Part shown: piece by piece, positions 6,761 to 62,081 of the stretch | Layout of the letters: each line of letters starts with the position of its first letter | Numbering within the stretch: the stretch's first letter is position 1 | From: a virus | Taxonomy: Duplodnaviria > Heunggongvirae > Uroviricota > Caudoviricetes | DNA length: 64,000 nucleotides | IMG/VR virus record: IMGVR_UViG_3300033121_001869 | Location: 45,076 to 109,075 of that record | Strand: one strand, 5' to 3' | The notes under the pieces: generated by a model | Databases searched by the model: none | The model's input: only the letters and a program-made list of their open reading frames with translations | What the model was told of the DNA's origin: nothing | Made by a program: the position numbers and the translations under genes

Positions 6761-7273
6761 ATGTACAATCGAGGCAAAACAAATACAATCAAATACATAA
6801 TAAACTCATTCGCTAATGGGGAGATCGATCGTATTAAAGATATTGTCAATAAACAAGGAGAAGATATATTTGAATTAATACCAAAACTTAATAGTGGTAA
6901 CTATAGCAGATTGGCTGTTTATCCTATCAAGAATGGACACTTTGAGGCATTTAGACTATATTTGAATAGTTCTAATCCTAAACCACTTTCTCGTTCTGAG
7001 TTATATTTAATAACTAAGCATAATTCTAGTAAAAAAAGATTCAAATCTTGGATAGAAAACTATAAAAAATATACTGATGTCCAATCTTTTATAGAATTTG
7101 AAACAATATTCCCAATGTTTTTAAATAGCATTATATCAACATATAATGAAGAACTAATTGAAGAGTTTTTAGAAATGTATCCAGAAAATTACAATTTTAT
7201 AGTTGATAAAATAAATACATCAAATAAAGGAATTCAATTAAAACGTAATTTGAAACTAAAATATCTTGTATAG
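6761..7273 (+). CDS. hypothetical protein with C-terminal tag
   Basis: ends KRNLKLKYLV; TAATTTTG at 6749-6756. Confidence 0.6.
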   Translation: MYNRGKTNTIKYIINSFANGEIDRIKDIVNKQGEDIFELIPKLNSGNYSRLAVYPIKNGHFEAFRLYLNSSNPKPLSRSELYLITKHNSSKKRFKSWIENYKKYTDVQSFIEFETIFPMFLNSIISTYNEELIEEFLEMYPENYNFIVDKINTSNKGIQLKRNLKLKYLV

Positions 7274-7317
7274 TTACAAAATGGAATAATGAATTTGAGA
7301 AGTACATAAGAATATGC

Positions 7318-7563
7318 GTGGATTTCAAGGACTTAGATAAATTAAAACTAATGACATATGATAAATATTCATCTAAAGATGTATCATATACTTTAAAATT
7401 TGATGATAATTACCATATTGGATATTTTGACATCAAGAATATATCTGGAATATCTGGATATAATAATGGAGTGATATTAGATTTAGAATTAAAAAAATTA
7501 GAAATAGAAAAAGCCCCAATAGATTGGATTAGGAATTTTCATATCAATGAATTATTGAATTGA
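7318..7563 (+). CDS. small hypothetical protein with C-terminal tag
   Basis: ends IRNFHINELLN. Confidence 0.55.
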   Translation: MDFKDLDKLKLMTYDKYSSKDVSYTLKFDDNYHIGYFDIKNISGISGYNNGVILDLELKKLEIEKAPIDWIRNFHINELLN

Positions 7564-7735
7564 TTTTCCTATCCCGTTTATAGGTAATCCAGAAATTCTC
7601 ATGACAAGAAAATTGAGTACCATCATCCAAGTAAAGAAAGTAAGTATCACCAACTTTATTTTCAACAACTATATTTAAAGAATCAATATAATTGATATCG
7701 ACTTCCAAATCAATTGATCCAATATGAATAACCAT
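7544..7735 (-). CDS. small hypothetical protein with C-terminal tag
   Basis: ends KRDRKINSIIH. Confidence 0.55.
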   Translation of the reverse strand: MVIHIGSIDLEVDINYIDSLNIVVENKVGDTYFLYLDDGTQFSCHENFWITYKRDRKINSIIH

Positions 7736-8164
7736 ATAAAAAATTTAAAAGAAAAATTATATGATGTATATACCTACTATTTTGATTTGTTGTTATTTTT
7801 ATTTATAAATACAATCAATAGAAACAAAATAACAAGAAAAATTGATAAAATTATAATTCTAGAGAATTGGGTCATTTATTATGATGTTTTAGTTATTAAA
7901 AATTTAAACATAAATAGTGTAATATTAAATACCTCAAAGAATTGGTATACAATATTTACTCACAGTCCAAAAAATATTGAAGAGGCTAAAAAATATTTTC
8001 CTAGTATCTTAAAAAATTTAATACACATTGATGGATTTAGTAAAAATAATATTCCATTTAACAATGATGATTATTTTTTTAAAAAAATTAAACTTCAACC
8101 GCTACCCGAATATATAAGTGAGCAACGAAATCTACAATTAAATAAACTAATTAATGAAAAGTGA
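7724..8164 (+). CDS. hypothetical protein with C-terminal tag
   Basis: ends QRNLQLNKLINEK. Confidence 0.55.
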   Translation: MNNHIKNLKEKLYDVYTYYFDLLLFLFINTINRNKITRKIDKIIILENWVIYYDVLVIKNLNINSVILNTSKNWYTIFTHSPKNIEEAKKYFPSILKNLIHIDGFSKNNIPFNNDDYFFKKIKLQPLPEYISEQRNLQLNKLINEK

Positions 8165-8468
8165 AATTAAAATAGAATTTTCCAATAAAGAAATTCTAAA
8201 CCAACTAATCCAAAAATCCTATTTTGAAAATGGTCAACTCGGTAGACTATCAGGATCCAAAACCTATATTGAAATAACTCCCGAAATAGATGATATAGTA
8301 CATACTATTGTTAAGGGATTGAATAATGCAACAATTAAAATAACTAATTCCGATATTATTGATGGATCATTTAGATTCATAGTGGAAGAAAAAAACGAAA
8401 AAATAAAATTAATTCCAATATCTATTTTTTGCATTGAAGATGAAAATAACAAGTACTCATTCTATTGA
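8154..8468 (+). CDS. hypothetical protein
   Basis: 104-aa ORF overlapping neighbours. Confidence 0.6.
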   Translation: MKSEIKIEFSNKEILNQLIQKSYFENGQLGRLSGSKTYIEITPEIDDIVHTIVKGLNNATIKITNSDIIDGSFRFIVEEKNEKIKLIPISIFCIEDENNKYSFY

Positions 8469-8613
8469 TAAAGACATAGACATAATATCATATGATATTG
8501 TCTTGAAGCCTTCTATGTCATTAATGTATATAGATACAATAATATCTATAACTCGAACAAATAGCAGACTAAATAAAATTGAAAAAATACTCAAAAAGAT
8601 AAATGAAATTTGA
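8440..8613 (+). CDS. 57-aa protein with C-terminal tag (not in ORF track)
   Basis: MKITSTHSIDKD...SRLNKIEKILKKINEI; fills the gap before guaC. Confidence 0.55.
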   Translation: MKITSTHSIDKDIDIISYDIVLKPSMSLMYIDTIISITRTNSRLNKIEKILKKINEI

Positions 8614-9541
8614 TTTTGAAGAGATAAATCTCATACCCAAACTTTGTGTCGTCGACTCAAGAAATGAATGTGATACTTCGATAGTTTTTGGTAAACATAA
8701 ATTTAAACTACCAATTGTTCCATCTAATATGGAATCAGTAATTAATGAATCACTAGCTATAAAATTGGCACAAAACGGGTATTTTTATATAATGCATCGA
8801 TTTGATATAGATGTAATTAAATTTATTTCAAATATGAAAAAGCTAAATTTAATTACATCTATATCTATTGGTGTTAATCAGGATTCTTATAATCTAATTG
8901 ATGAATTAATTGGGAAAAATCTTATTCCAGATTTTATAACTATTGATATAGCTCATGGACATGCACTCAAAATGCAAAAAATATTGGAATTTATCAAATT
9001 AAAAAATATACAATCATTTATAATTGCAGGAAATGTTTCAACTAAGGAAGCTGTCAAAGATCTAACTGAATGGGGAGCTGATGCAATCAAAGTTGGTATA
9101 GGACCCGGAAGCGCATGCACAACTTGGCCATCGACAGGATTCGGATCTAGGAATTGTCAAGCATCAACAATATTAGAATGCTCATCAGTATCAGATATTC
9201 CTATCATAGCAGATGGTGGAATCAAAACACCAGCAGATATAACAAAAAGTATTGTACTTGGAGCATCAATGATCATGGTTGGTGGTATGTTAGCAGGGTT
9301 TAATGATTCTCCAGGTCATCTAATAGATATAAATGGAGTCTATAAAAAAGAATTTTGGGGATCCGCATCCGAATTTCAATCTGGTAAAAAAAATAGAATT
9401 GAAGGTAAAAAGATATTAATTGATTTCAAAGATAAATCAATTTTAGATGAATTAAAATACCTTGAAGAATGCTTACAAAGTTCAATATCATATGCCGGAG
9501 GTAAGGGTATTAATTGTTTAAGTGGTGTTAAGTGGATTTAG
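8603..9541 (+). CDS. guaC: GMP reductase
   Basis: TIDIAHGH, KVGIGPGSACTT, IIADGGI; short IMPDH/GMPR-family length without CBS domains. Confidence 0.9.
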   Translation: MKFDFEEINLIPKLCVVDSRNECDTSIVFGKHKFKLPIVPSNMESVINESLAIKLAQNGYFYIMHRFDIDVIKFISNMKKLNLITSISIGVNQDSYNLIDELIGKNLIPDFITIDIAHGHALKMQKILEFIKLKNIQSFIIAGNVSTKEAVKDLTEWGADAIKVGIGPGSACTTWPSTGFGSRNCQASTILECSSVSDIPIIADGGIKTPADITKSIVLGASMIMVGGMLAGFNDSPGHLIDINGVYKKEFWGSASEFQSGKKNRIEGKKILIDFKDKSILDELKYLEECLQSSISYAGGKGINCLSGVKWI

Positions 9542-10328: not shown

Positions 10329-11186
10329 TTAAACTTCCACAACATATTGTCCACTATATTCCCTAAAATCTGGCTTTCTCATGACTGTTATAACTGTTAA
10401 TTTAAATTCATTCTCACCAGCCTCTAATTGACAAACAATGTTTAGATTTGTTTTTTTATTTCTTATGACAAATCTATTAGGTTCGCCAGCTTTAACTCCC
10501 TTAGTTGGATAATCATCCTCCTCTTGATTTATATTAAACTCATCTTGCATAAGTGAAATAGTCAACTGCTCAATCGATGATTGAATATCGTCCAATATTT
10601 CATCCTTAGAGATATTAGCTCCTATTTTATCATTATCATTTGATGAAAATCCATGTCTGAATTGTCTATCAAGTGCATGTGAAACTGCCTCAACATCAAT
10701 TCTAATTTCAACTGGTTCTTTTATATCACCAATGAATTCTGGCTTTCTATATGATTTTCCTATGTATGGATTTCTAATCTGATTAGTTTCTGAAATACCC
10801 TTCATTCGTCTTCGTGATACTTCCCTATCTTTTTTAGGAATATCTAATTTATCTATAACATCTATAAACTCCTGTGGTGGTTTATAATCATGTTTTTCAA
10901 TATAGTGTATTAATAATTCTGGATAGCAATAAATTTTGCCGTTTCCTCTAACTTCATAATTTGTAGATCCCCTAGCATCATTACAAAAAGGACAACGATG
11001 AAATCCCTTGTATCTTTCACTTGGTTCTATCAGTTTTAATTTCTGTATTATATTATCATCAACTTTACCTTTAGTATAATCCTTAGATGAATCTAACCAT
11101 CCAACATTAACTCTGCCTTCCTTTCTGGAATATGTATATGGTGTTAAATCTTCATAATATGATTCAAATAATTTTAAATACTTCAT
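10329..11186 (-). CDS. two-domain hypothetical protein, N-terminal tag
   Basis: MKYLKLFESYYEDLTPY, GFHRCPFC, HYIEKHDYKPP; TAATATATA at 11192-11200. Confidence 0.7.
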   Translation of the reverse strand: MKYLKLFESYYEDLTPYTYSRKEGRVNVGWLDSSKDYTKGKVDDNIIQKLKLIEPSERYKGFHRCPFCNDARGSTNYEVRGNGKIYCYPELLIHYIEKHDYKPPQEFIDVIDKLDIPKKDREVSRRRMKGISETNQIRNPYIGKSYRKPEFIGDIKEPVEIRIDVEAVSHALDRQFRHGFSSNDNDKIGANISKDEILDDIQSSIEQLTISLMQDEFNINQEEDDYPTKGVKAGEPNRFVIRNKKTNLNIVCQLEAGENEFKLTVITVMRKPDFREYSGQYVVEV

Positions 11187-17691: not shown

Positions 17692-18237
17692 TTAATAGTT
17701 AAACGATAAAATCTTTTTAACATTATTAGAATTTATATATTCGTGTGTTCCAAATTGATCAGTAACTCTTTGTATATCCAATTTTTCAGTTTTAGATTTA
17801 AAAACTTCAATATAGTCAACCAATTCAACCAATGAATTTTTATATTCAGCATCAGGAGTCCAATAGTCAGGAAATTTATCCAAAAATTTATCAACGACAG
17901 CTTCTAAACCTTTTTTTCTAACCAACACCAATGATCCTTGGTTTATTGATTTATTTGCCAAAAACTCGACAATATAAGTATTAAATTTGTGTATTAAATT
18001 TGAAGTTTCAATTATTTTTAATAGTCCAATGACTAAAGCATCTCTTTCAGAGATTTCAAATTCCTTATTCTCTTTTAAAATTTGTTCGGCTTCTTTTTCA
18101 GATCCAAGAACGTAATAAACGTATGTGTCCCAGACACACCTGACCACCAAATCAGTGGGAAAAACTCGTATTTGCATTTTAATATATAATTTTAAATTTA
18201 TAAAGAAAAAAACATAAAAGTTTATGATAAGTACCAA
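17692..18237 (-). CDS. hypothetical protein (probable start MQIRVF)
   Basis: 181-aa ORF. Confidence 0.65.
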   Translation of the reverse strand: MVLIINFYVFFFINLKLYIKMQIRVFPTDLVVRCVWDTYVYYVLGSEKEAEQILKENKEFEISERDALVIGLLKIIETSNLIHKFNTYIVEFLANKSINQGSLVLVRKKGLEAVVDKFLDKFPDYWTPDAEYKNSLVELVDYIEVFKSKTEKLDIQRVTDQFGTHEYINSNNVKKILSFNY

Positions 18238-19291
18238 GAAAACGATAGAGGAAGTACAGAAAGAAATTAATGTACAGGGTATTGATTTCCAAATTTTAGA
18301 ATATAATGGATTTACAAAAAATAATAAATTTAAACATTCTTGTGGATTTGAATTTGAAACTAGATTATCACATCTTCTTAACAGAAAAAGATGTCCAAAA
18401 TGTCATGGGAAATGGAGAGACAAAGAAATGTTTCAAAGTGAATCGAATAAGATTCATAATAATGAATATGAAATATTGGAATTTTCAAATGGCAATTCTA
18501 GCGTGAAAATAAGACATAAAAATTGCGGTAAAATATTTACACAAATAGGATATCAACATTTAAAAGGAAATAGATGTTTTCACTGTTATGGAATTAAAAA
18601 ACTATCAAAAGATTACATAATTAAAAAATCGTGTGAAATGTGGAATAATGAATATAAAATATTATCCGAAAAGATAGATTATAATAAAAAATCTAAATTT
18701 AGACATATTTGTGGATTTGAATATGATCAAATAACGAGCTCACATCTACTTGGACATGGGTGTCCAAAATGCGGCGGAAACGCAAGACACAACAAACAAT
18801 CAATTCAAGAAAAATCAGATAAAATTCACAACAAAGAATACCTAATATTATCCGAAGGCAAAAACACAAAAGATATTATTAAAATTAGACATACTGTTTG
18901 TGGTCGAGAATACACACAAAAAGTGGACTATCATATATCAGGAAGCATGTGCCCATATTGTAATTTGAGTAAAGGTGAAAAAATGATTGAAAAAGTACTA
19001 TCTGATTTAAATATTAAATATGAAAAGCAAAAAACATTCGAGGGTTGCAAATTCAAAAATAAATTAAAATTTGATTTTTTTATTCCAGAAATGAATATTT
19101 GTATAGAGTATGATGGAATTCAACACTTTCAGCCATGTTGGTATTTTGGAGGGAAAAAAGCATTCACATTACAAAAAATAAAAGATCAAATAAAAAATGA
19201 TTTCTGCCTCAACAATAAAATTAATTTAATTAGATTTAAATATGATGAGGATATTAAAATAATCGAAAATACTTTATTAAAGTTGAATTAA
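18224..19291 (+). CDS. homing-type endonuclease: zinc-ribbon repeats plus Vsr-like PD-(D/E)xK domain
   Basis: repeated H..CG..F...HL.G..CPKC units; FDFFIPEMNICIEYDGIQHF. Confidence 0.8.
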   Translation: MISTKKTIEEVQKEINVQGIDFQILEYNGFTKNNKFKHSCGFEFETRLSHLLNRKRCPKCHGKWRDKEMFQSESNKIHNNEYEILEFSNGNSSVKIRHKNCGKIFTQIGYQHLKGNRCFHCYGIKKLSKDYIIKKSCEMWNNEYKILSEKIDYNKKSKFRHICGFEYDQITSSHLLGHGCPKCGGNARHNKQSIQEKSDKIHNKEYLILSEGKNTKDIIKIRHTVCGREYTQKVDYHISGSMCPYCNLSKGEKMIEKVLSDLNIKYEKQKTFEGCKFKNKLKFDFFIPEMNICIEYDGIQHFQPCWYFGGKKAFTLQKIKDQIKNDFCLNNKINLIRFKYDEDIKIIENTLLKLN

Positions 19292-19301
19292 TATATACGT
19301 T

Positions 19302-20129
19302 ATGAAATACTTAAAGTCATTTGAATCAATCAATTTTGGAGATAAACATTTTGGAATTGCTGTCTTTGATTATATACCTTGGGCTAAATATCCAAAATCA
19401 ATAACTCAATTGCCTAAATATGATGATAAAATGAGAAGATTTTTATTAAGCTGGTTAAGTGATACACCATATGCGCCAATGGCTTATGTTTGGATGAATT
19501 ATGAAGGAAATTGGCTATTTAGATGGGACGCTCACCTTATTCAAAATAGAGATAGTAGTGAATATATGTTGGTTAATCAAAACACCAATGAATTATTATT
19601 TAATGGACGTTCTATTGATATAGAAGATTGGGAAGATATTGAAAAAATTAAACTAACACTTTTTTTAGGCAAAAGGGATAAATCTACTGAATATTTCAAT
19701 ATACTACAAGATGCTATAGAAGTATATGAAGTATTTGAGGATTATGATTTATCTAGTGATGATAATAATTCTTATACTGATAAGGATTATAGAATGATGA
19801 AACTAAAATCCGCAATCGAAGAGGAAGAAGTATATTTAGATATAACAGATGAGATGTTGATAGAATTTATCAAGAATTATACTGGAGATGTTGAATTTTA
19901 TAAAAGCCTAAGGAGATTTTTAGAAAAAAATGGAAATTTAACTTATCGTCAATTACAAGCAATGAAGAAAAAACCAAATATAGAAATGTATAATTTAGAT
20001 CCAAATAAAATATGTATTTTTCTAAATCCAAATATATATAAACACATAGGTGAGAGATTAGTAAACATGGGATATAAATCCCAAAAATGTAGATCAAGCT
20101 ATGGACATGAAATAATGTTATATAGATGA
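19302..20129 (+). CDS. hypothetical protein, N-terminal tag
   Basis: MKYLKSFES; TAATATATA at 19289-19297. Confidence 0.7.
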   Translation: MKYLKSFESINFGDKHFGIAVFDYIPWAKYPKSITQLPKYDDKMRRFLLSWLSDTPYAPMAYVWMNYEGNWLFRWDAHLIQNRDSSEYMLVNQNTNELLFNGRSIDIEDWEDIEKIKLTLFLGKRDKSTEYFNILQDAIEVYEVFEDYDLSSDDNNSYTDKDYRMMKLKSAIEEEEVYLDITDEMLIEFIKNYTGDVEFYKSLRRFLEKNGNLTYRQLQAMKKKPNIEMYNLDPNKICIFLNPNIYKHIGERLVNMGYKSQKCRSSYGHEIMLYR

Positions 20130-23186: not shown

Positions 23187-25061
23187 TTATTTAACCTCTT
23201 CATAGGCAACATCCTCTGGCTCAGAAGAATTCTGTTCTGTATTTGGAGGTGTTTGAGTCTGAGAATATATCTCTGTACTTATTTTACTCCAAGTTGAGTT
23301 TAATTCATTAAGCTTAGAATCTATTTGATCTACATCCCCGGATTTATGAGCCGTTCTTAGTCCATCCAATACAGATTCTAACTCGGACTTATTTGTATCG
23401 GATAATTTATCGCCAAACTCTTTTATTTGTCTTTCAGTTTGGAAAATCATATTATCAGCCAAATTCATTTTATCGACTCTCTCCTTTTCCTTCTTATCAG
23501 ATTCAGCATTAGCCTCAGCTTCAGCTTTCATCTTTTCAATTTCCTCTTTAGAAAGTTGAGAACCACCCTCTATCCTAATCTTATTCTCTTTACCAGTAGC
23601 CTTATCTTTTGCGGTTACAGATAATACACCGTTGGCGTCGATATCTAAAGTAACCTCAATTTGAGGAACTCCTCTAGGAGCCGGCATAATTCCATCTAAA
23701 TGGAATCTACCTAGTGATCTATTGTCTTTAGCCATAGGTCTCTCACCTTGAAGGACGTGTATCTCTACTGATGCCTGGTTATCAGATGCTGTTGAGAATG
23801 TTTCAGATTTCTTTGTAGGTATTGTAGTATTTGCCTCAATCAGTTTGGTAAATACAGAACCCATTGTTTCAATACCTAAAGATAAAGGAGTTACATCTAG
23901 TAATAAAACATCTGTTATGTTGCCAGTCAACACAGCTCCTTGAATAGCAGCTCCAATAGCTACAACTTCATCTGGATTTACTGATTTATTTGGCTTTTTA
24001 CCAAATGTTTTTTCAATAGCTTCTTGAATAGAAGGTATACGTGTTGAACCACCAACCAATATAATCTCATCAATATCTGATGCTTTTAAATTGGATTTTT
24101 TAAGGGCTGTCAATGCACAATCGATTGTTCTCTTAACCAAATGTGATGTCATTTGATCAAATTTCGATCTTGTTAATGATTTAACAAAATGTAAAGGAAC
24201 ACCATCTTGTGCGGTTATATAAGGTAAGTTAATATCACTTTGTACCGTAGATGATAATTCAATTTTTGCTTTCTCAGCAGCATCTTTTAACCTTTGAAGT
24301 GCCATAACATCCTTACTCAAATCAATATTATGCTCGGATTTAAACTCCAGCACCATCCAATCAATGATAACATTATCAAAATCATCACCACCAAGGTGAA
24401 CATCACCATCAGTAGATTTAACTTCAAATACACCATCACCAATTTCTAAAACTGAAACGTCATGTGTTCCACCACCACAGTCAAATACTAAAATCTTAGA
24501 ATCTTTTTCTTTTTTATCCAAACCATAAGCTAAAGCTGCTGCGGTTGGCTCATTAATAATACGTTCAACTTTCAATCCCGCAATCTCACCAGCCTCAATA
24601 GTAGCTGTTCTTTCAGCATCACCAAAATAAGCTGGGACAGTTATAACTGCTCTTTTAACCTCATACCCAAGATAGTCTTCAGCAGTTTTCTTCATTTTTT
24701 GAAGTATAATAGCAGAAATTTCTTGTGGTGTAAATTTTCTACCATCTATATCGACTGCGGGTATATTATTTCCAGCCTTTACAACTTTATAAGGAACTCT
24801 TTTAATCTCATCACTACAATTTGTATAATCTTTTCCTATAAATCTTTTTATAGAATAAACTGTTTTTGATGGATTTGTTACCGATTGTCTTTTAGCTGGA
24901 TCTCCAACCTTTCTATCAGTTCCAGTGAAACCAACAATTGAAGGTGTTGTTCTTTTACCTTCTGAGTTTGTAATTACAATAGGCTCTCCATTTTCTACAA
25001 TTGAAACTGCCGAATTTGTGGTTCCAAGATCCACACCAATAATAACATCTTTTTTTGCCAT
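23187..25061 (-). CDS. dnaK: chaperone DnaK (Hsp70)
   Basis: [48 protein letters not shown]. Confidence 0.98.
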
Positions 25062-25167: not shown

Positions 25168-26007
25168 ATGAGATATATCTATATTTTAATAGATCCAGAA
25201 AATAAAAACATAGGATATGTTGGGCAGACAAATAACCTAAAAAGGAGATATAATACACATCTAACAAAATGCATGATAGAATCAGACTGTGAATATCAGA
25301 CATATAAATCAAGATGGTTGAGAAAATTAATATCAAATGGATTAAAGCCAATAATAGAAGTATTAGATTTTTGTGAAAATTTAGAGCAATCTAATGAAAA
25401 AGAAAAATTTTGGATTGACAAAATGTCACAAAATGGATTTGAATTGACAAATTCACATCGAACAGATGTGACTGAATTTTCACTAATAACAAGACAAAAA
25501 ATGTCTAGTATTAGAAAAGGTAAAAAACTTGAAGAGATTATTGGAAAAGAAAAAGCAGAAAAACTTAAAATTTATAATTCAGAAAGAATAAAATTAAATA
25601 ATCCAAACAAATCCAACGATCCTTTAGTTAAAGCAAAAATTAGCAAGTCTCTAAAAAAGTATTTTTTAAATTCAGAAAATCATTGGGCACATGGGAAAAA
25701 AATGAATGAAGATCATATAGAAAAATTAAGAAAATCCAAAATTGGAAATCCAAAAAATGTCGGTAATAAAAATCCAAGAACAGACGAACAAAAACAAAAA
25801 ATTAGGGATAAAATTCTCGGAACAAAAGTAGAAAGACATATTATATTACAATTAGATATAGAGAATAATTTAATTAAAGAGTGGAAAAGTATGAGAGAAA
25901 TAGAACGAAAGACTGACTTCTCAAGACTACAAATTTCAAGGTGTTGTAAAGGTTTAAAAAAATATCATGGTGGATTTATTTGGAAATACAAGCCTCAACC
26001 TCTATAA
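25168..26007 (+). CDS. GIY-YIG homing endonuclease with NUMOD tail
   Basis: YIYILIDP...YVGQTNN...R, EKFWI, C-terminal GFIWKYK. Confidence 0.85.
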   Translation: MRYIYILIDPENKNIGYVGQTNNLKRRYNTHLTKCMIESDCEYQTYKSRWLRKLISNGLKPIIEVLDFCENLEQSNEKEKFWIDKMSQNGFELTNSHRTDVTEFSLITRQKMSSIRKGKKLEEIIGKEKAEKLKIYNSERIKLNNPNKSNDPLVKAKISKSLKKYFLNSENHWAHGKKMNEDHIEKLRKSKIGNPKNVGNKNPRTDEQKQKIRDKILGTKVERHIILQLDIENNLIKEWKSMREIERKTDFSRLQISRCCKGLKKYHGGFIWKYKPQPL

Positions 26008-26895: not shown

Positions 26896-27621
26896 ATGAA
26901 ATGGATAAAAAAATATAAACATCTTAACTCCTTAAATGAATCAGGATACTATCCATATCATCATAAGTTAAGTGATACTGAAATTGAAAAAACGTATAAG
27001 TATTTCTTTTATCATGTATTTCCACAAGAAAGATATAAACTAATGAATGAAATTATAAAAGAATCAATTGAATACACCGATTTTATTGATTTCTACAATA
27101 AAGTAAATCATCCAGACCAATTCGTTATCCGACCACAATTATTAATAAATTACGCTAATTCATTTGCATCAATGACAAACATGTTTAAAGTTGAAGTTTT
27201 TGATAATAATCCAAACTATCAAAATGTTGCTAGAAACGGATGGGCACACATTCTAAAAGATAATTTTAATAATCTTTATACTAATAATGATGTATCCACC
27301 GGAAAAGAAAGACACGGTTATCCTTGTTACGAATACCGATTACAACTTACTATTACCGATCACTGGACAGAAGATGGAAAAAGAACTCCTATGAAAGAAT
27401 TAATAAACTCTTTTATGGAATCTACTGATGATGTCATCAAAACAAAAATTACTAAACTTATCAGAGATAATATAAAATTATTTGCTAAACACATGGATGT
27501 TGATGTAAATCTATTCATCTCTAAGAGAGGACCTAATCATTTTAGAAAAAATTGTTATGAATTTGAAATCCGACTGATTGATTTAGATTTTACCCCACCA
27601 CCTTTTAATATCATTAATTAA
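26896..27621 (+). CDS. hypothetical protein, N-terminal tag
   Basis: MKWIKKYKHLNSLNES. Confidence 0.7.
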   Translation: MKWIKKYKHLNSLNESGYYPYHHKLSDTEIEKTYKYFFYHVFPQERYKLMNEIIKESIEYTDFIDFYNKVNHPDQFVIRPQLLINYANSFASMTNMFKVEVFDNNPNYQNVARNGWAHILKDNFNNLYTNNDVSTGKERHGYPCYEYRLQLTITDHWTEDGKRTPMKELINSFMESTDDVIKTKITKLIRDNIKLFAKHMDVDVNLFISKRGPNHFRKNCYEFEIRLIDLDFTPPPFNIIN

Positions 27622-27639
27622 TATAAGATTGAGGAATAG

Positions 27640-27772
27640 CAATACAATATGAAATTCCAATTTGGGGTTCTCTGGGTTATTCAAGTTTTGTTCTTCTTTA
27701 TTCATTTTATTTTTAATTTAAAGTTTCTACTATTTAATCCCAAACTGGGTATATCTGCGAACCGTTATGTGT
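27640..27772 (-). mobile_element. degenerate attC-like site downstream of cassette gene
   Basis: ACACATAAC right after the stop codon; CCCAGTTTGGG / CCCAAATTGG inverted arms; far end decayed. Confidence 0.5.
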
Positions 27773-27781
27773 AATAAAAAA

Positions 27782-28324
27782 TTAAAATTGATTTTTAATT
27801 ACTATGATAATTTCTCTATTATTATATTTTGTTCTCGCAATAGCTTTTGATATATCTACCTTTTCACTATCCGTGAAATATTGCCCCCATATATAATCAA
27901 ATTTATTTTTAAACTTATTAAAATATATATTTATATCGTCATTACCGATAAAAGTTACCAATTCTACACCATTACCAAGATTTAATATACTATCATAATT
28001 ATACCCGTTTAGAAATTCTAATTCAGTATTATCTTCGTACCATTCTAATTCATCTTTTAATATATTATTTGATGTTAAGAAAATTGAAGTTATGTTACCA
28101 TTATCATTTTTATTATAAAAAGAATTTTCAAAATTTGTTACTTCGAGTGTATATTTATCAGATTGTGATTTATCAGAATAAATATGTTTCATATTTTGAT
28201 ACTTAAAATATAAAATGTCATCAATTATTACATCATTAACCTTACTGATTAAAGACTCGTTAAGTTCATCAAATCTTTTAATATGTTTCATAATAAGTTT
28301 TAATTTTTTTACTACACATAACAA
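27782..28324 (-). CDS. cassette-borne hypothetical protein, N-terminal tag (probable start 28291, MKHIKRFDELNES)
   Basis: ORF bounded by two attC-like sites. Confidence 0.7.
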   Translation of the reverse strand: MLCVVKKLKLIMKHIKRFDELNESLISKVNDVIIDDILYFKYQNMKHIYSDKSQSDKYTLEVTNFENSFYNKNDNGNITSIFLTSNNILKDELEWYEDNTELEFLNGYNYDSILNLGNGVELVTFIGNDDINIYFNKFKNKFDYIWGQYFTDSEKVDISKAIARTKYNNREIIIVIKNQF

Positions 28325-28404
28325 GGTGTATATGTAAGTTTTTTATTTAGTTTTTAGTATATATTAAAAATGAAAACCTAAATATATCTGTGACCGTTAT
28401 AAAA
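28314..28404 (-). mobile_element. attC-like recombination site
   Basis: TTTTATAAC ... GTTATGTGT ends, imperfect internal inverted repeat (TATATTTAGGTTTT / AAAACTTACATATA), TAATATATA in the loop. Confidence 0.6.
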
Positions 28405-28534
28405 CATAAAAATTATTTACTTAAATCATTATCGTTAAATAATTCTTTTAATCTAACTTTTAGTTTATCAAAAAATTGTTCTTTACCCATGATATCTGCT
28501 CCGCAAAATGGGTCATCAGTTTCACCATATATTA

Positions 28535-28675
28535 ATGAGATATGAGGGATTTACCCCACAAGAAAGACAAGATGAGATTTTAGATAAGATCTCAAAGTAT
28601 GGTATTAGTTCAATAACAGAAGATGAGATCAATTTTTTAAATTCATTTGCTCTTGGTAATCATTATGCTCCTTAA
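28535..28675 (+). CDS. 46-aa DUF6576-like protein, possibly truncated (not in track)
   Basis: DEILDKISKYGISSITEDEINFL matches the C-terminus of 12275-12988. Confidence 0.55.
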   Translation: MRYEGFTPQERQDEILDKISKYGISSITEDEINFLNSFALGNHYAP

Positions 28676-38385: not shown

Positions 38386-39321
38386 TTAGATTATCAGGTT
38401 ATTTAAATTAACATATCGGTAAAAACTTGTAGTATTGGGTAACAAACATTCAAATTCTTGTGCAAAAGAACGAGTATTATAAATGTTATTCATCATATCT
38501 TTTTTCCAAGCTTCATCTCTATTTGGAATAACATACCAAGGATATTCCTTCTTAACAAAGTTATTATTATTTAAATAAATATCGGAAAAATATTTATCAC
38601 TTTCAGTAGGTGTAGAAAAAATTATAATCCTACCATCTCTAATAGATAATAACCTCGGAACTAACATACTATTAATTTCAGATTGGTGTGAATTATGTGC
38701 TAGATCAGATAAAACTAAAGTATCAATATTTGTCATGATATATTTTTCGGGATCTATTCCCAATAATATCTGAGAACCATTATCAAATACTATTTTATAT
38801 GGTGATCTATTATTAGCTATTCCCTTCTTAAGAAAGTAAGGCAAAGGTATATACAGTGAATATATTATTTCATAAAAACTCTTACACAATGCCGTTGTAG
38901 GACAAAGTACTAATGTGGTTTTATTTTTATTAAACATGGCATAGTGTAAAACATAAAGAGCCATTATTGTTGTTGTTCCAATTTGCCTCGATACATTAAG
39001 AATAGATAATCGATTCTTTGATACCGTATCAAGCATATCAATTTGTGAATTATAAAAAATAAATGATATAAATTCTTGAATATTCTTAATATCAGACTCA
39101 ATATTTGAATATTTTTTCTCCTCTTCCTCGGTGAATTTAAATTCGATATTGGGGGCTCTTATTCCTACTATAACATTACCACTATTTATAATATATGGAC
39201 TAACAAAAGTATAATTTGACTCTGTTCCCCCATCAATAATACCATCTATGAGAAAATCACGAATAAATGGTTTTTCTCCCATATCAGTATATAACTTTAA
39301 AAGATATGAATTCCAAATCAT
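38386..39321 (-). CDS. degenerate terminase large-subunit ATPase-domain paralog, no nuclease domain
   Basis: SRQIGTTT (K lost), LVLSDLAH (DE lost), FDNGS, FSTP, W..IPNRDEAW, FAQEFEC. Confidence 0.75.
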   Translation of the reverse strand: MIWNSYLLKLYTDMGEKPFIRDFLIDGIIDGGTESNYTFVSPYIINSGNVIVGIRAPNIEFKFTEEEEKKYSNIESDIKNIQEFISFIFYNSQIDMLDTVSKNRLSILNVSRQIGTTTIMALYVLHYAMFNKNKTTLVLCPTTALCKSFYEIIYSLYIPLPYFLKKGIANNRSPYKIVFDNGSQILLGIDPEKYIMTNIDTLVLSDLAHNSHQSEINSMLVPRLLSIRDGRIIIFSTPTESDKYFSDIYLNNNNFVKKEYPWYVIPNRDEAWKKDMMNNIYNTRSFAQEFECLLPNTTSFYRYVNLNNLII

Positions 39322-44845: not shown

Positions 44846-45568
44846 GTGAAAAATGTTAAAAAATATAGAGATTTCTGTAATGAAGAAATAAACCTAAAAA
44901 ATGCACTTATAGGTGGGGCAATAGCCGCATCCACAATTGGTTGTGATTCAACAGAATTAAATAAGAGACAAGGCAGTGAATGGATCACAACACCAACTCC
45001 AATTGAAAGCGCAACCGAAATAAAAGAACTACCAAATAAATTTGAGATGGATGAAGTTATAATGACAATAGGAACAGATATGAATATTAATGTTGGTGAC
45101 CAACAAGTAGGAAAAGTTGAAGAAAGAACGCTAAATTGGGGTAAAACATTTGAATACTTTGATAATAAAGGTCACAAAATAGCAACAGGAAAAGAAAAAG
45201 CACTGAGTTTATTAACTACAATAGATATCTATGACAGTAATGATAAAAAAATAGGAACATTTGAAGAAGAATTATTTAAAAATTTCTTCTCTATAAAAAC
45301 ATATTATTCAATAAAAGATGCCTCAGGCAAATTAATTGCAGAATCAGAAAAACTGGATTGGTTATCAACTAATATAGAAATATTCTCACCGAGTGGTGAA
45401 ATTCTATGTAAAATGAAAAGACCGGCATTTAACTTACTAAGTGATAGTTGGAAAGTGGAGGTACTTGGAAATATTGATAAACGTCTAATAGTTTTCATAC
45501 CTTGTTATAAAACATCAGCCGATAATGAAAGGAAAAGTGAGGATGATAAAAATAACAATGAAGACTAA
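44846..45568 (+). CDS. LURP-one/scramblase-like protein with N-terminal tag and lipobox-like segment
   Basis: MKNVKKYRDFCNEE-INLKNALIGGAIAASTIG-C; repeated beta-hairpin units; DKRLIVFI. Confidence 0.65.
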   Translation: MKNVKKYRDFCNEEINLKNALIGGAIAASTIGCDSTELNKRQGSEWITTPTPIESATEIKELPNKFEMDEVIMTIGTDMNINVGDQQVGKVEERTLNWGKTFEYFDNKGHKIATGKEKALSLLTTIDIYDSNDKKIGTFEEELFKNFFSIKTYYSIKDASGKLIAESEKLDWLSTNIEIFSPSGEILCKMKRPAFNLLSDSWKVEVLGNIDKRLIVFIPCYKTSADNERKSEDDKNNNED

Positions 45569-48270: not shown

Positions 48271-48808
48271 TTATGAGATATTTGTTGAGGAAATGTCTAT
48301 GGCTCCTTTGTATCATGCAATCGAGTTTAAAAAAGGCGAAAAAGCTATAAGGTCAAATAAATTAGATTGTTATTCCTTTCAGAGAATTTGGGATGAAGGC
48401 AAAAGATTAAAAGATGATGATCCAGAATATTACAAGTCTAAATATCTAAGAGGAATATCACTGAGTAGAGATATTGAATATGCTAAAGTTTGGAATAATA
48501 TTGTATTTGAATTTGATCAATCTAAATTGAAAACAAAATGGAAAATAATACCTTACAATTGGGGATATTCAATTGGTGGTGGATATAGACAGAAAGAAAG
48601 AGCTAAAAGAGAACGTGAGGAATTTTTAATTACCGGAATCACAAAAGAGATTGACATAGAAAAACCATTTGGAAGTATTCAGCCGTTGGATAAATATTTG
48701 ACAGGATTTTGGATAGATTCCTTTATTAAAGGATTAAACGGATATGATACTAGATATTTAGAGAATCATGAATTATTTAAGGGATTTTTTAATCGAAGAA
48801 AAAATTAA
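48260..48808 (+). CDS. hypothetical protein, N-terminal tag
   Basis: MIFNYEIFVEE; LYH...ISLSR...EREE pattern is weakly ADP-ribosyltransferase-like. Confidence 0.6.
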   Translation: MIFNYEIFVEEMSMAPLYHAIEFKKGEKAIRSNKLDCYSFQRIWDEGKRLKDDDPEYYKSKYLRGISLSRDIEYAKVWNNIVFEFDQSKLKTKWKIIPYNWGYSIGGGYRQKERAKREREEFLITGITKEIDIEKPFGSIQPLDKYLTGFWIDSFIKGLNGYDTRYLENHELFKGFFNRRKN

Positions 48809-49014
48809 GACTTCTTCTTAACTTTCTTAGGAGGAGTTGTTTTAAAAGAAACTACTTTCTTTTTATTAATTGTTGGCATTCCAGATTCATCTTTTCCAAT
48901 TTCTTTAACAATTGTTTTTTTATTTTTAAATCTACCCATATAGATTGTATCACCAATATTTACTGGAATATTTATATCTTCATTTAATTCTATGAATGAT
49001 TTTATATACTTCAT
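48805..49014 (-). CDS. small hypothetical protein, N-terminal tag
   Basis: MKYIKSFIELNEDINIPVNIGDTIYMGRFKNK. Confidence 0.7.
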   Translation of the reverse strand: MKYIKSFIELNEDINIPVNIGDTIYMGRFKNKKTIVKEIGKDESGMPTINKKKVVSFKTTPPKKVKKKS

Positions 49015-52151: not shown

Positions 52152-53540
52152 TTAATTTCCAATTTCTTTTAACCAATCACTCATTTCTAATGATTTCCAA
52201 GCACCCTCCAATTCATCATCTGACATTTCTGTTAGATCTGTCAAATTAAAATTAGAAGACGCTGATAGTAATTCTATTATCTCTTCTCTATTCATAGTAT
52301 TAAATGGAGAATCAAAAGATTCAAATAGCCTAATATATCTCATACTCTCAGAACTCTCAATATATTGGAATTGTCCAGATTTTAACATATCAACATCTCT
52401 TTGAGATGTATGGAATAATTTAACAAAATTATCTAATACTTTAAATGTTCTCTCAATATCCTCTGGATGAAAAAGAAGTCCATATCTTTTTAAATTATCA
52501 TTAGATATTGCTGTAATAATATTTCCAACTTTTCCGATAACTTTAAATCCATCCGGACATTTTGTAACAATATCATGGAAAGCAAAGCTAAATTCACAAT
52601 TTTCCAAATCTATACCATCAAATAAAAAAGATTTATCATAACTTGTTAATTTTTTTGAACTTTGTACAAATTTACCTGAATCTTTTACCTCACCACCATG
52701 AAAAACAACCATTGATTGCATACCGTAACATAAACCAAGAATCGGACACTTAAGTATCTCCAAAGCCTTTTTACTTGCCAATGGCTCCGACTCATCTAAT
52801 GGTTTTGTAAATCTATAATCTGATCCAGATAAGATAGCACCAACGATATTATCATTAGAATTAATTCTACTAACATCTTCTGGATTTGTAGCAACAATAT
52901 ATTCAATTCCTCGCATTTTTAAATATTTTAAAATATTATGTAAAAAACGATTCTCTTGTGGTTTTGCATTATTTACTACCATAACTTTTTGATCCCCAGA
53001 AAGAGGAGCCAATTTAACATCTTCAGCAACATATGTTTCTGGATATTTATCTATAAAAGAGAAATCTTTTGTCTGAAATTTAAATCCAAAGGCATTTATA
53101 AATTTAGTCAAATCTTTTATAGAATCATCACATAATCCAAAGTGTGTTTCGGGATCCGCTTTTGATCCTATACCATTGTAATGGATAACATCTAATTTAT
53201 TAGGTTGTTTTACACTAAATTCGGATACCATACTATCACCATATGTAATATCAATAAGGATTTTTAGCTTATTATCCTCTTTAACAAAATGCATATCAAA
53301 TTCTAATGTATCGGGCTCACCATCTGCCAGAGCATTTCCACCAAATTCTTCCATTGTATTATGCTCATAGCAAATTCTTAGAATATCTATCTCTCTAGTA
53401 ATGGTATCCTTTTTCATGGAAAATTCACCATTAGACGTATAAATTCTGAATTTTTCAGGTAAGAATTTCTTTATAGCCTCATCATAAATAACAACCGAGT
53501 CCTCATGATTAGATTCATAGAAAGATTTTAAATACTTCAT
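52152..53540 (-). CDS. class I glutamine amidotransferase (GuaA N-domain-like) fused to tagged modules
   Basis: ILSGS, PILGLCYGMQ, LLFHPE triad; MKYLKSFYES; internal MRYIRLFES at 52343. Confidence 0.8.
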   Translation of the reverse strand: MKYLKSFYESNHEDSVVIYDEAIKKFLPEKFRIYTSNGEFSMKKDTITREIDILRICYEHNTMEEFGGNALADGEPDTLEFDMHFVKEDNKLKILIDITYGDSMVSEFSVKQPNKLDVIHYNGIGSKADPETHFGLCDDSIKDLTKFINAFGFKFQTKDFSFIDKYPETYVAEDVKLAPLSGDQKVMVVNNAKPQENRFLHNILKYLKMRGIEYIVATNPEDVSRINSNDNIVGAILSGSDYRFTKPLDESEPLASKKALEILKCPILGLCYGMQSMVVFHGGEVKDSGKFVQSSKKLTSYDKSFLFDGIDLENCEFSFAFHDIVTKCPDGFKVIGKVGNIITAISNDNLKRYGLLFHPEDIERTFKVLDNFVKLFHTSQRDVDMLKSGQFQYIESSESMRYIRLFESFDSPFNTMNREEIIELLSASSNFNLTDLTEMSDDELEGAWKSLEMSDWLKEIGN

Positions 53541-53556
53541 GAATCTATATATTAAA

Positions 53557-61130: not shown

Positions 61131-62081
61131 CTATAAATTTATAGACATATCTAAAAAATGTCCATCTTCCCCATCAATACTAAATCCAAATTTTTTATAT
61201 AAATTAATAGCAGCTATATTATTCCTCAATACTTCTAATTTTATTGAGTTACAATTAAATTTTTTAGCTCTGGCAAAAATTTCCTCCATTACTTTTGTTC
61301 CATACTTATTACCACGATACTTTTGATTAATCTCAATCATAACTACATGAAATATATTGTCTTTTATTCTATAATGTAGTGTTCCAATTCGGTTTTCATC
61401 ATCATATAAAATACTAACATTGTCACCCTTTCTTACAAATCCAATTCCTCTCGGATCTTCTTTCACGATAGTATCATTAAACGTAATATGTTCGTTAAAA
61501 TTAAATACTGACATTCTTTTTATTACATTATTAATACCAAGATACTTTAGCTGAATATTTATTAACTCCATATCAGCTTCTACTTTATTGGTAAATTCAA
61601 ACTCATCCCCATTAACACCTATAAAAATATAATAATCTCCTATGCGCATGCCGTTGACACTATTGATCATCTCTATTAAAATATAATCATCACCTTTCAA
61701 ATCTATTTGACCTGAGATTTTTTCACCAACTCTGCTTATATTTTTATGAAATGAAACATCCCTTATAAGTTCTATTCCTTTTTTATACAAGGTGTCTAGA
61801 AATGATAAAGTCATGATCAATAGATATAAGGTCTTGTTTCTGAAATCATAAGAACATATCTCATATCCAATTTTTGATATAATATAATTAATGACATGTA
61901 TACCAGACTCATCAAAAGATTCACAATCCTCATAATACAAAGCTAAAAATCCACTATGGTATTTAGTCATGTCATTAGATATGTATTTTGGACTTGAATC
62001 AGTTAGATATTGAAGCGCATCTAAAATATCAGAAAGATCATCTTCATCAACCCTCTCATTAAATAATCTTAGATGTTTCAT
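61131..62081 (-). CDS. tagged protein with C-terminal GNAT acetyltransferase domain
   Basis: MKHLRLFNE; KYRGNKYGTK, LEVLRNNIAAINLYKKFGF. Confidence 0.8.
   Translation of the reverse strand: MKHLRLFNERVDEDDLSDILDALQYLTDSSPKYISNDMTKYHSGFLALYYEDCESFDESGIHVINYIISKIGYEICSYDFRNKTLYLLIMTLSFLDTLYKKGIELIRDVSFHKNISRVGEKISGQIDLKGDDYILIEMINSVNGMRIGDYYIFIGVNGDEFEFTNKVEADMELINIQLKYLGINNVIKRMSVFNFNEHITFNDTIVKEDPRGIGFVRKGDNVSILYDDENRIGTLHYRIKDNIFHVVMIEINQKYRGNKYGTKVMEEIFARAKKFNCNSIKLEVLRNNIAAINLYKKFGFSIDGEDGHFLDMSINL

Follow-up and report, generated by a model that had tools for sequence, protein, structure and literature searches.

The locus described here raises the question of whether a single small gene in a tailed-phage genome, bracketed by two complementary sequence boxes, is an integron cassette and, if not, what kind of unit it is. 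The window, i.e., the whole stretch of DNA analyzed, comprises 64,000 nucleotides (positions 45,076 to 109,075) of the IMG/VR virus record IMGVR_UViG_3300033121_001869, and the genome examined is a 182,437-bp contig rated about 79% complete. An earlier note, made from the letters of this DNA alone, had read the unit as an integron-style attC gene cassette with a complete attC-like hairpin upstream of the gene. Our analysis makes it likely that the unit is an orphan cassette belonging to a phage-borne, integron-like cassette system. The cassette is probably immobile, and the analogy with integrons is right in part, with membership in the integrons proper failing.

The cassette and its flanking elements

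An open reading frame (ORF) of 169 codons on the minus strand is preceded by GTTATGTGT (28322-28314) and followed by ACACATAAC (27772-27764), and the first box is the exact reverse complement of the second, as the earlier note had observed. This 9-mer inverted pair, two observed occurrences in the window against 0.40 expected (a count of two was reached in 4 of 100 shuffles), forms the inner portion of a 24-nt inverted repeat (88%) that abuts the ORF; the 9-mer count for the 182-kb genome is three. Additionally, an 18–19-nt direct repeat at 28383-28400 and 27750-27768, composed of ATAACGGT, 0–1 nt, and a segment containing CAGATATA, has no other match in the 182,437-bp contig. Two further sequences described below, the G-type core and the S-type half, are likewise restricted to this locus within the 182 kb and form no genome-wide set. 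A genome-wide regulatory motif was rejected because neither the direct repeat nor the G-type core recurs outside the cassette locus, and a similar site at 38766, which lies within coding sequence, was dismissed as chance. An invertible segment was also rejected, since the orientation of the cassette relative to its neighbors is the same on all contigs. A search of viral contigs found no relatives of the flanking 241-aa gene.

The cassette ORF (P0001, 169 aa; 27782..28291, minus strand; beginning MKHIKRFDELNES) encodes a protein with a predicted GNAT fold. Its AlphaFold2 model has a pLDDT of 88, and in a structure comparison against 48,161 chains the top 50 matches were all GNAT acyltransferases (Z 7.6–9.7, 116–146 residues aligned); Foldseek matches were weak and also pointed to GNAT. 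P0001 gave no match in Pfam (E ≤ 0.1), PHROG, or NCBIfam, and no clear Q/RxxGxG/A loop is visible in its alignment. A homing endonuclease as cargo was rejected because the predicted fold is GNAT and not that of a nuclease. The gene lies on the strand opposite to its neighbors in every context, and four homologues (53–65% identity) sit in other contexts without hairpins. A phage Hsp70/DnaK gene is located 2.7 kb from the cassette (23187-25061, minus strand), and in L004 a 57%-identical homologue of P0001, which has no hairpins and overlaps its upstream gene, is also near an Hsp70 gene (6890-8755).

Upstream of the gene, element 1 (28314..28400, minus strand) was delimited by alignment to S- and G-type elements of other phages. 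It runs from a 5' core ATAAC (28400-28396) through a spacer, an S-subfamily 5' stem (28390-28377), a loop, a G-subfamily 3' stem (28338-28325), and TT to a 3' core GTTAT (28322-28318), which extends to GTTATGTGT. Its 5' half aligns with the S-type elements of L061, L063, and L001 as a similar sequence, and its 3' half matches the G-type elements of L061 and L063 exactly. The alignments identify element 1 as a chimera of two hairpin subfamilies, joined across a loop motif common to both. The earlier note had described a complete attC-like hairpin at this place; folded as single-stranded DNA, however, element 1 is no better than shuffled sequence (z +0.34, +0.79, and −1.04), with pairing limited to the 5-nt ends, compared to z −5.5 and −6.0 for intact G-type elements in the same comparison. 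The chimeric structure explains why element 1 cannot fold and indicates that homologous exchange also plays a part.

The loop of element 1 carries, between ATAAC and GTTAT, the promoter-like motif TTTAATATATAC (28357..28368, minus strand), which contains TAATATATA, in agreement with the earlier note. TTTAATATATAC also occurs in the loops of G- and S-type hairpins of other phages and may function as a promoter, and the genome contains 64 copies of TAATATATA versus 16–42 for 9-mers of equal composition. The motif TTTAATATATA(A/C) is over-represented genome-wide (e.g., window positions 19287-19298 and 53545-53556). It often ends just 4–5 nt ahead of an ATG, a spacing that hints at leaderless or very short transcripts.

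Downstream of the gene, element 2 (27640..27768, minus strand) aligns with L059 2062-2187 and its relatives as a decayed leader-type hairpin that runs on to about 27640. Its 5' core, spacer, 5' stem, and inner stem pairing are preserved, but nothing remains of the outer 3' stem or the 3' core; the extended form of the 5' core is ACACATAAC (27764..27772), with an exchange joint directly after it. The 5' stem and a following T-run stand directly after the stop codon. Element 2 does not fold (z +1.14), whereas the L059 relative does (z −3.1). A vestigial leader ORF of 40 aa (27583..27705, minus strand) starts in its loop and extends into the 3' end of the convergent gene, and over its first ~16 residues it can be aligned to the leaders found in L059 2062-type elements. 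The complementarity of GTTATGTGT and ACACATAAC, which the earlier note took as the signature of an integrated circular cassette, is that of the conserved end boxes of two different hairpins and not a circle junction.

A hairpin scan of the contig detected no intact family hairpin, and an Rfam scan of the cassette region returned nothing relevant, Rfam being without an IntegronFinder/HattCI attC model. The absence of an integrase from the window, noted earlier, extends to the whole contig, in which a PF00589 search found no tyrosine recombinase, and the IntI-type enzyme that the earlier note had proposed to look for elsewhere in the genome was not encountered there; as the contig is about 79% complete, a recombinase gene could sit in the missing part. 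The unit is called an orphan because it is one cassette with no intact hairpin and no recombinase.

The hairpin family and a linked recombinase in other phages

The gene-proximal core of element 1 has exact matches in 33 IMG/VR loci, where it pairs with an inverted partner across a 45–90-nt loop. These G-type arms bracket at least seven different small ORFs, and a search for ATAAC...GTTAT pairs places them as one subfamily within a larger hairpin family. Members of the family are 41–159 nt long, with invariant ends (A/C)TAAC and GTTA(T/G) and a 3–5-nt bulge on the 5' side, and their stems vary from member to member and covary. In five 50-nt members with 22 consensus pairs, both partners have changed in a compensatory way at seven pairs, and the variable stem contains no broken pair. 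Fold scores of intact members range from z −3.1 to −6.0, and as many as ten co-oriented hairpins lie between small ORFs at one locus. Of these family features, element 1 has both ends and the halves of two subfamilies, and element 2 has the 5' end, the spacer, the 5' stem, and inner pairing. Alignment and predicted pairing together support the assignment of both window flanks to this structure-conserved, attC-like hairpin family.

Some loops of the family carry a Bacteroidetes-type promoter pattern, i.e., TTTG, ~19 nt, and TAnnTTTG (L035 3674-3760, L038 2719-2807, L037 4799-4886, and L061 3462-3550). Together with weak matches to Cellulophaga phages, these putative promoters would fit flavobacterial hosts. 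A 125-nt long-loop G-type hairpin with ~110 nt of purine-rich downstream leader is conserved in ~20 viral contigs (L012 1470-1690, L036, L042, L044, L046, L054, L058, L066, and others). The possibility that this long-loop element (L011/L012) is tRNA-like or another known RNA was rejected, as ARAGORN and Rfam returned nothing and its fold z is −0.04.

The hairpins of other phages are linked to P0017, a tyrosine recombinase of 266 aa, whose gene lies 0.6–13 kb from hairpins in 9 of the 32 records bearing the G-type motif; at least eight motif records have no recombinase within 15 kb, including a 309-kb genome rated complete. In an independent set of 80 loci fetched through the P0017-type protein alone, 63 contain at least one hairpin, with 289 hairpins on the recombinase strand versus 1 on the opposite strand and 279 upstream of the recombinase gene versus 10 downstream, counts that are not independent because the loci come from related phages. 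Hairpin density rises toward the recombinase, with 79 in the last kilobase before the gene, and the reversed-sequence control gave one hairpin. The linkage supports the view that, in other phages, the hairpin family forms polar arrays that end at an Xer/IntI-related recombinase gene; a co-oriented array of this kind is present in relatives and not in this genome.

Profile and structure comparisons place P0017 nearer to Xer enzymes than to integron integrases. It scores 162 bits against the integron-integrase model TIGR02249 (cut-off 265) and 107 bits against NF011946 (cut-off 435), and its best NCBIfam match is archaeal XerA. It aligns to IntI4 (2a3v) over residues 18–178 only and to XerA (4a8e) over its full length. 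P0017 is, by these comparisons, Xer-like and appears to lack the IntI-specific insert, and the recombinase presumably acts on the hairpins. The cultured Polaribacter phage isolates Freya_10 (L148, 1-4146) and Freya_1 (L149/L150) differ by ~4 kb containing ten small ORFs directly upstream of a 40%-identical integrase gene, and homology resumes 67 nt before that gene. A strict hairpin scan of the Freya variable region found no element and looser inverted repeats only.

Some hairpins may contribute coding sequence to the gene that follows. In 65 of 216 distinct hairpins (~30%), the loop contains a start codon whose ORF reads through the 3' box, and in 49 of these 65 a Val codon begins with the G of the box. 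The encoded leader peptides are closely similar to the N-terminal leader ("tag") of P0001 and to that of at least 15 further ORFs in this genome. The tag of P0001 covers codons 1–18 (28238..28291, minus strand) and ends with the Val codon GTT followed by A, which on sequence grounds is a probable vestige of a 3' core. It resembles leaders encoded within leader-type hairpin loops, and in the structure model residues 1–20 have pLDDT 52–68 and are not part of the fold. In L001, a cassette gene of 120 aa has ~17 codons in common with P0001 and then diverges. At least 16 ORFs of this genome begin with MK[H/Y][I/L]K.[F/Y]; tagged ORFs in the window include 2526-2933, 10329-11186, 19302-20129, 26896-27621, 48805-49014, 52152-53540, and 61131-62081. 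The tag may have been supplied by a recombination site. A fuller version of this idea is that a cassette gene receives promoter, start codon, and ~20 residues from the hairpin site, with the 3' crossover core read as an in-frame Val codon, so that the platform builds in-frame fusions and many tagged genes are former cassettes with eroded hairpins; we put this forward tentatively, as a possibility with somewhat more against it than for it.

Identical copies and the boundaries of exchange

Genes for the exact P0001 protein occur on at least 23 public contigs in contexts unlike the window, and the gene is present at 100% identity in at least two further, largely unrelated phage contexts, B (L017 and L020) and C (L011–L016, L018, and L019). 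These copies support, at the sequence level, the interpretation of the P0001 gene as a discrete cassette that moves between phages. The presence of the exact unit in other phages, which the earlier note had proposed to look for, is borne out by contexts B and C. No empty site was found among the loci compared: contigs with identical neighbor proteins all carry the cassette or end at it. Likewise, no whole-cassette indels or replacements were found between compared loci at 85–90% identity.

Context C contigs otherwise match this genome in a few genes only, at 72–77% identity, yet they contain a 609-nt block of 97.7% identity to the window, including a zero-mismatch tract of 542 nt (27760..28301, minus strand). 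The two edges of this tract differ in character. On the right, the window and L011 are 100% identical as far as 27760, where the match breaks off 4 nt into the spacer. On the left, similarity decays gradually, with mismatches at 28302 and 28318 and then an indel, as expected of homologous exchange. The perfect tract starts 20 nt inside the G|TT boundary that the earlier note had proposed, and the chance that both left-edge mismatches fall inside those 20 nt is about 0.001. The P0001 gene is joined to two different downstream hairpins, and in context C it is flanked by repeats of about 58–61 nt.

Context B is identical to the window over 1,231 nt (27428..28658) with no similarity beyond the block, and both ends of the block lie inside coding sequence. 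A 55-aa ORF next to the cassette (28508..28675, plus strand), with a weak DUF6576 match, corresponds to the N-terminal 50 residues of a 151-aa gene; context B (L017 and L020) has this gene intact. Since the block cuts through neighboring genes, the latest arrival was not a clean site-specific event, contrary to the clean cassette integration proposed earlier.

Mosaic joints in the wider family locate the exchanges at the hairpin ends. Among end-box-anchored site pairs with ≥90% identity on one side and ≤45% on the other, 8 pairs switch at the 3' core and 23 at the 5' core, in each case within 5–8 nt, and the right edge of the window against L011 is one of the 23 joints at the 5' core. A switch within 5–8 nt is too short for homologous recombination, and joints at both hairpin ends indicate that genes and hairpin bodies are swapped independently. 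On these data the boundaries do not coincide with a single G|TT crossover.

The window also contains a free-standing GIY-YIG-like gene (25168-26007, plus strand) and an HNH endonuclease gene (18224-19291, plus strand), and a 227-aa ORF of L011, lying on the strand opposite to its neighbors, has four matches in the genome (~34.0, 37.0, 77.7, and 131.5 kb). These observations point to many homing-endonuclease-type genes in the mosaic region.

Alternative explanations and implications

The most serious competitor to the cassette system is still an unlikely one. It holds that the hairpins are regulatory modules of the PeSL type, combining a promoter and a terminator and working at the RNA level, that ordinary homologous recombination shuffles the genes as in T4-type phages, and that the recombinase is incidental. 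PeSLs are promoter-early stem-loops of T4-type phages, and their biology is on record (Arbiol et al. 2010, PMC2839356; Comeau et al. 2014, PMC4122927). They are composite terminator/promoter hairpins, as the hairpins described here may be, and like these they lie between small non-essential phage genes and act as seams for gene gain, loss, and swap among related phages. The promoter-like loops with TTTAATATATAC or TTTG...TAnnTTTG, the T-run after the 5' stem directly following the stop codon, the fading left edge of the context C tract, and the occurrence of hairpins in records without a recombinase are all in line with this explanation, and the chimeric element 1 is best explained by homologous exchange in the shared loop. 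However, PeSLs occur many times per genome, are conserved in sequence, and depend on homologous recombination with no dedicated recombinase, whereas here stems covary, end boxes are invariant, the arrays have a polarity and a link to a recombinase gene, and this genome contains one locus rather than a genome-wide set. Joints between unrelated hairpin bodies or ORFs within 5–8 conserved nucleotides also count against it, and a purely regulatory role leaves the 289:1 strand bias and the 279:10 upstream bias unexplained.

A canonical integron cassette with attC sites, recombined at G|TT by an IntI of the host or the phage, is very improbable, despite some likeness. The end boxes ACATAAC and GTTATGT each deviate once, and symmetrically, from RYYYAAC and GTTRRRY, and the layout of R box, unpaired spacer, long stem, and variable loop is also that of an attC site. 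Qi et al. (2023, PMC9892861) reported integrase-less attC clusters in phages, and virulent phages, a Polaribacter phage among them, are reported to carry attC-like sites that IntI1 recognizes. The phage system shares with integrons its single-gene cassettes between imperfect hairpins, conserved inverse AAC/GTT-type cores, an unpaired spacer beside the end box, stems conserved in structure rather than sequence, co-oriented arrays adjoining a tyrosine recombinase of the Xer/IntI branch, and orphan sites or cassettes without an integrase. Nonetheless, both window copies fail to fold, the genome is without IntI, and the 266-aa recombinase of the family lacks the IntI-specific region and stays under the model cut-off. 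Its gene stands co-oriented at the downstream end of the array, in contrast to integrons, and the phage loops contain promoters and often a start codon with a leader peptide. Mosaic joints at the 5' core as well as at the 3' core, and hence the independent swapping of genes and hairpin bodies, are foreign to integrons, and the start of the perfect tract 20 nt inside G|TT would be a rare coincidence under this explanation. The use of both hairpin ends and a different enzyme also separate the hairpins from the attC sites reported in phages (PMC9892861). The earlier proposal that the phage shuffles cargo genes as cassettes is accordingly retained in part: a mobile cassette, attC-like flanks, and arrays with an Xer/IntI-related recombinase in other phages stand, but an IntI integron and functional sites at this locus do not.

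We give even less credence to a miniature transposon with terminal inverted repeats mobilized by a transposase in trans. The 24-nt inverted repeats in the window, their ~58–61-nt counterparts in context C, and a gene opposite to its neighbors in every context would suit such an element, but neither a target-site duplication nor a nearby transposase is present, the copy number is 1–7 per record, and the "repeats" are halves of two hairpins that elsewhere flank unrelated genes in co-oriented arrays. A further comparison is offered by the Xer-dependent modules of Acinetobacter plasmids. The sequences that bracket one such module are mutually inverted. In the plasmid modules (PMC7399989), a single gene is flanked by Xer recombination sites in various replicons, as in the phages, but the sites are short, double-stranded, and dif-like and are served by the host XerC/XerD, whereas the phage system has long hairpins whose stems vary and a recombinase encoded by the phage itself. 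A literature search found no paper on a phage hairpin-cassette platform of this kind.

We therefore prefer the orphan cassette of a phage-borne, integron-like system, which can be pictured as follows. Many large uncultured phages, probably of Bacteroidota, keep small accessory genes separated by DNA hairpins of 41–159 nt, in co-oriented arrays that run into the gene for the 266-aa Xer/IntI-like recombinase. Many loops carry a putative promoter, and ~30% also a start codon and roughly 20 leader codons. The window has one cassette between a chimeric upstream and a decayed downstream hairpin. This cassette most likely came in when general or illegitimate recombination with a phage infecting the same cell transferred a 1.2-kb block that included pieces of neighboring genes. 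The site-specific route would no longer be open to this cassette, which is probably transcribed from the loop promoter to yield a GNAT-fold protein with a disordered N-terminal leader.

If the platform works in this way, large lytic-style phages own a gene-capture system of their own. Such capture would rely on an ordinary Xer-type enzyme lacking the insert that is regarded as indispensable in integron integrases, and it would bear on the origins of integrons and on the exchange of accessory genes among phages. To this picture the window adds that cassettes escape into phages without the platform, with identical copies in unrelated genomes, and that exchange affects genes and hairpin bodies separately and takes place at either end of a hairpin. 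It also suggests that the recurrent N-terminal tag of this phage's proteins may be written by the recombination site.
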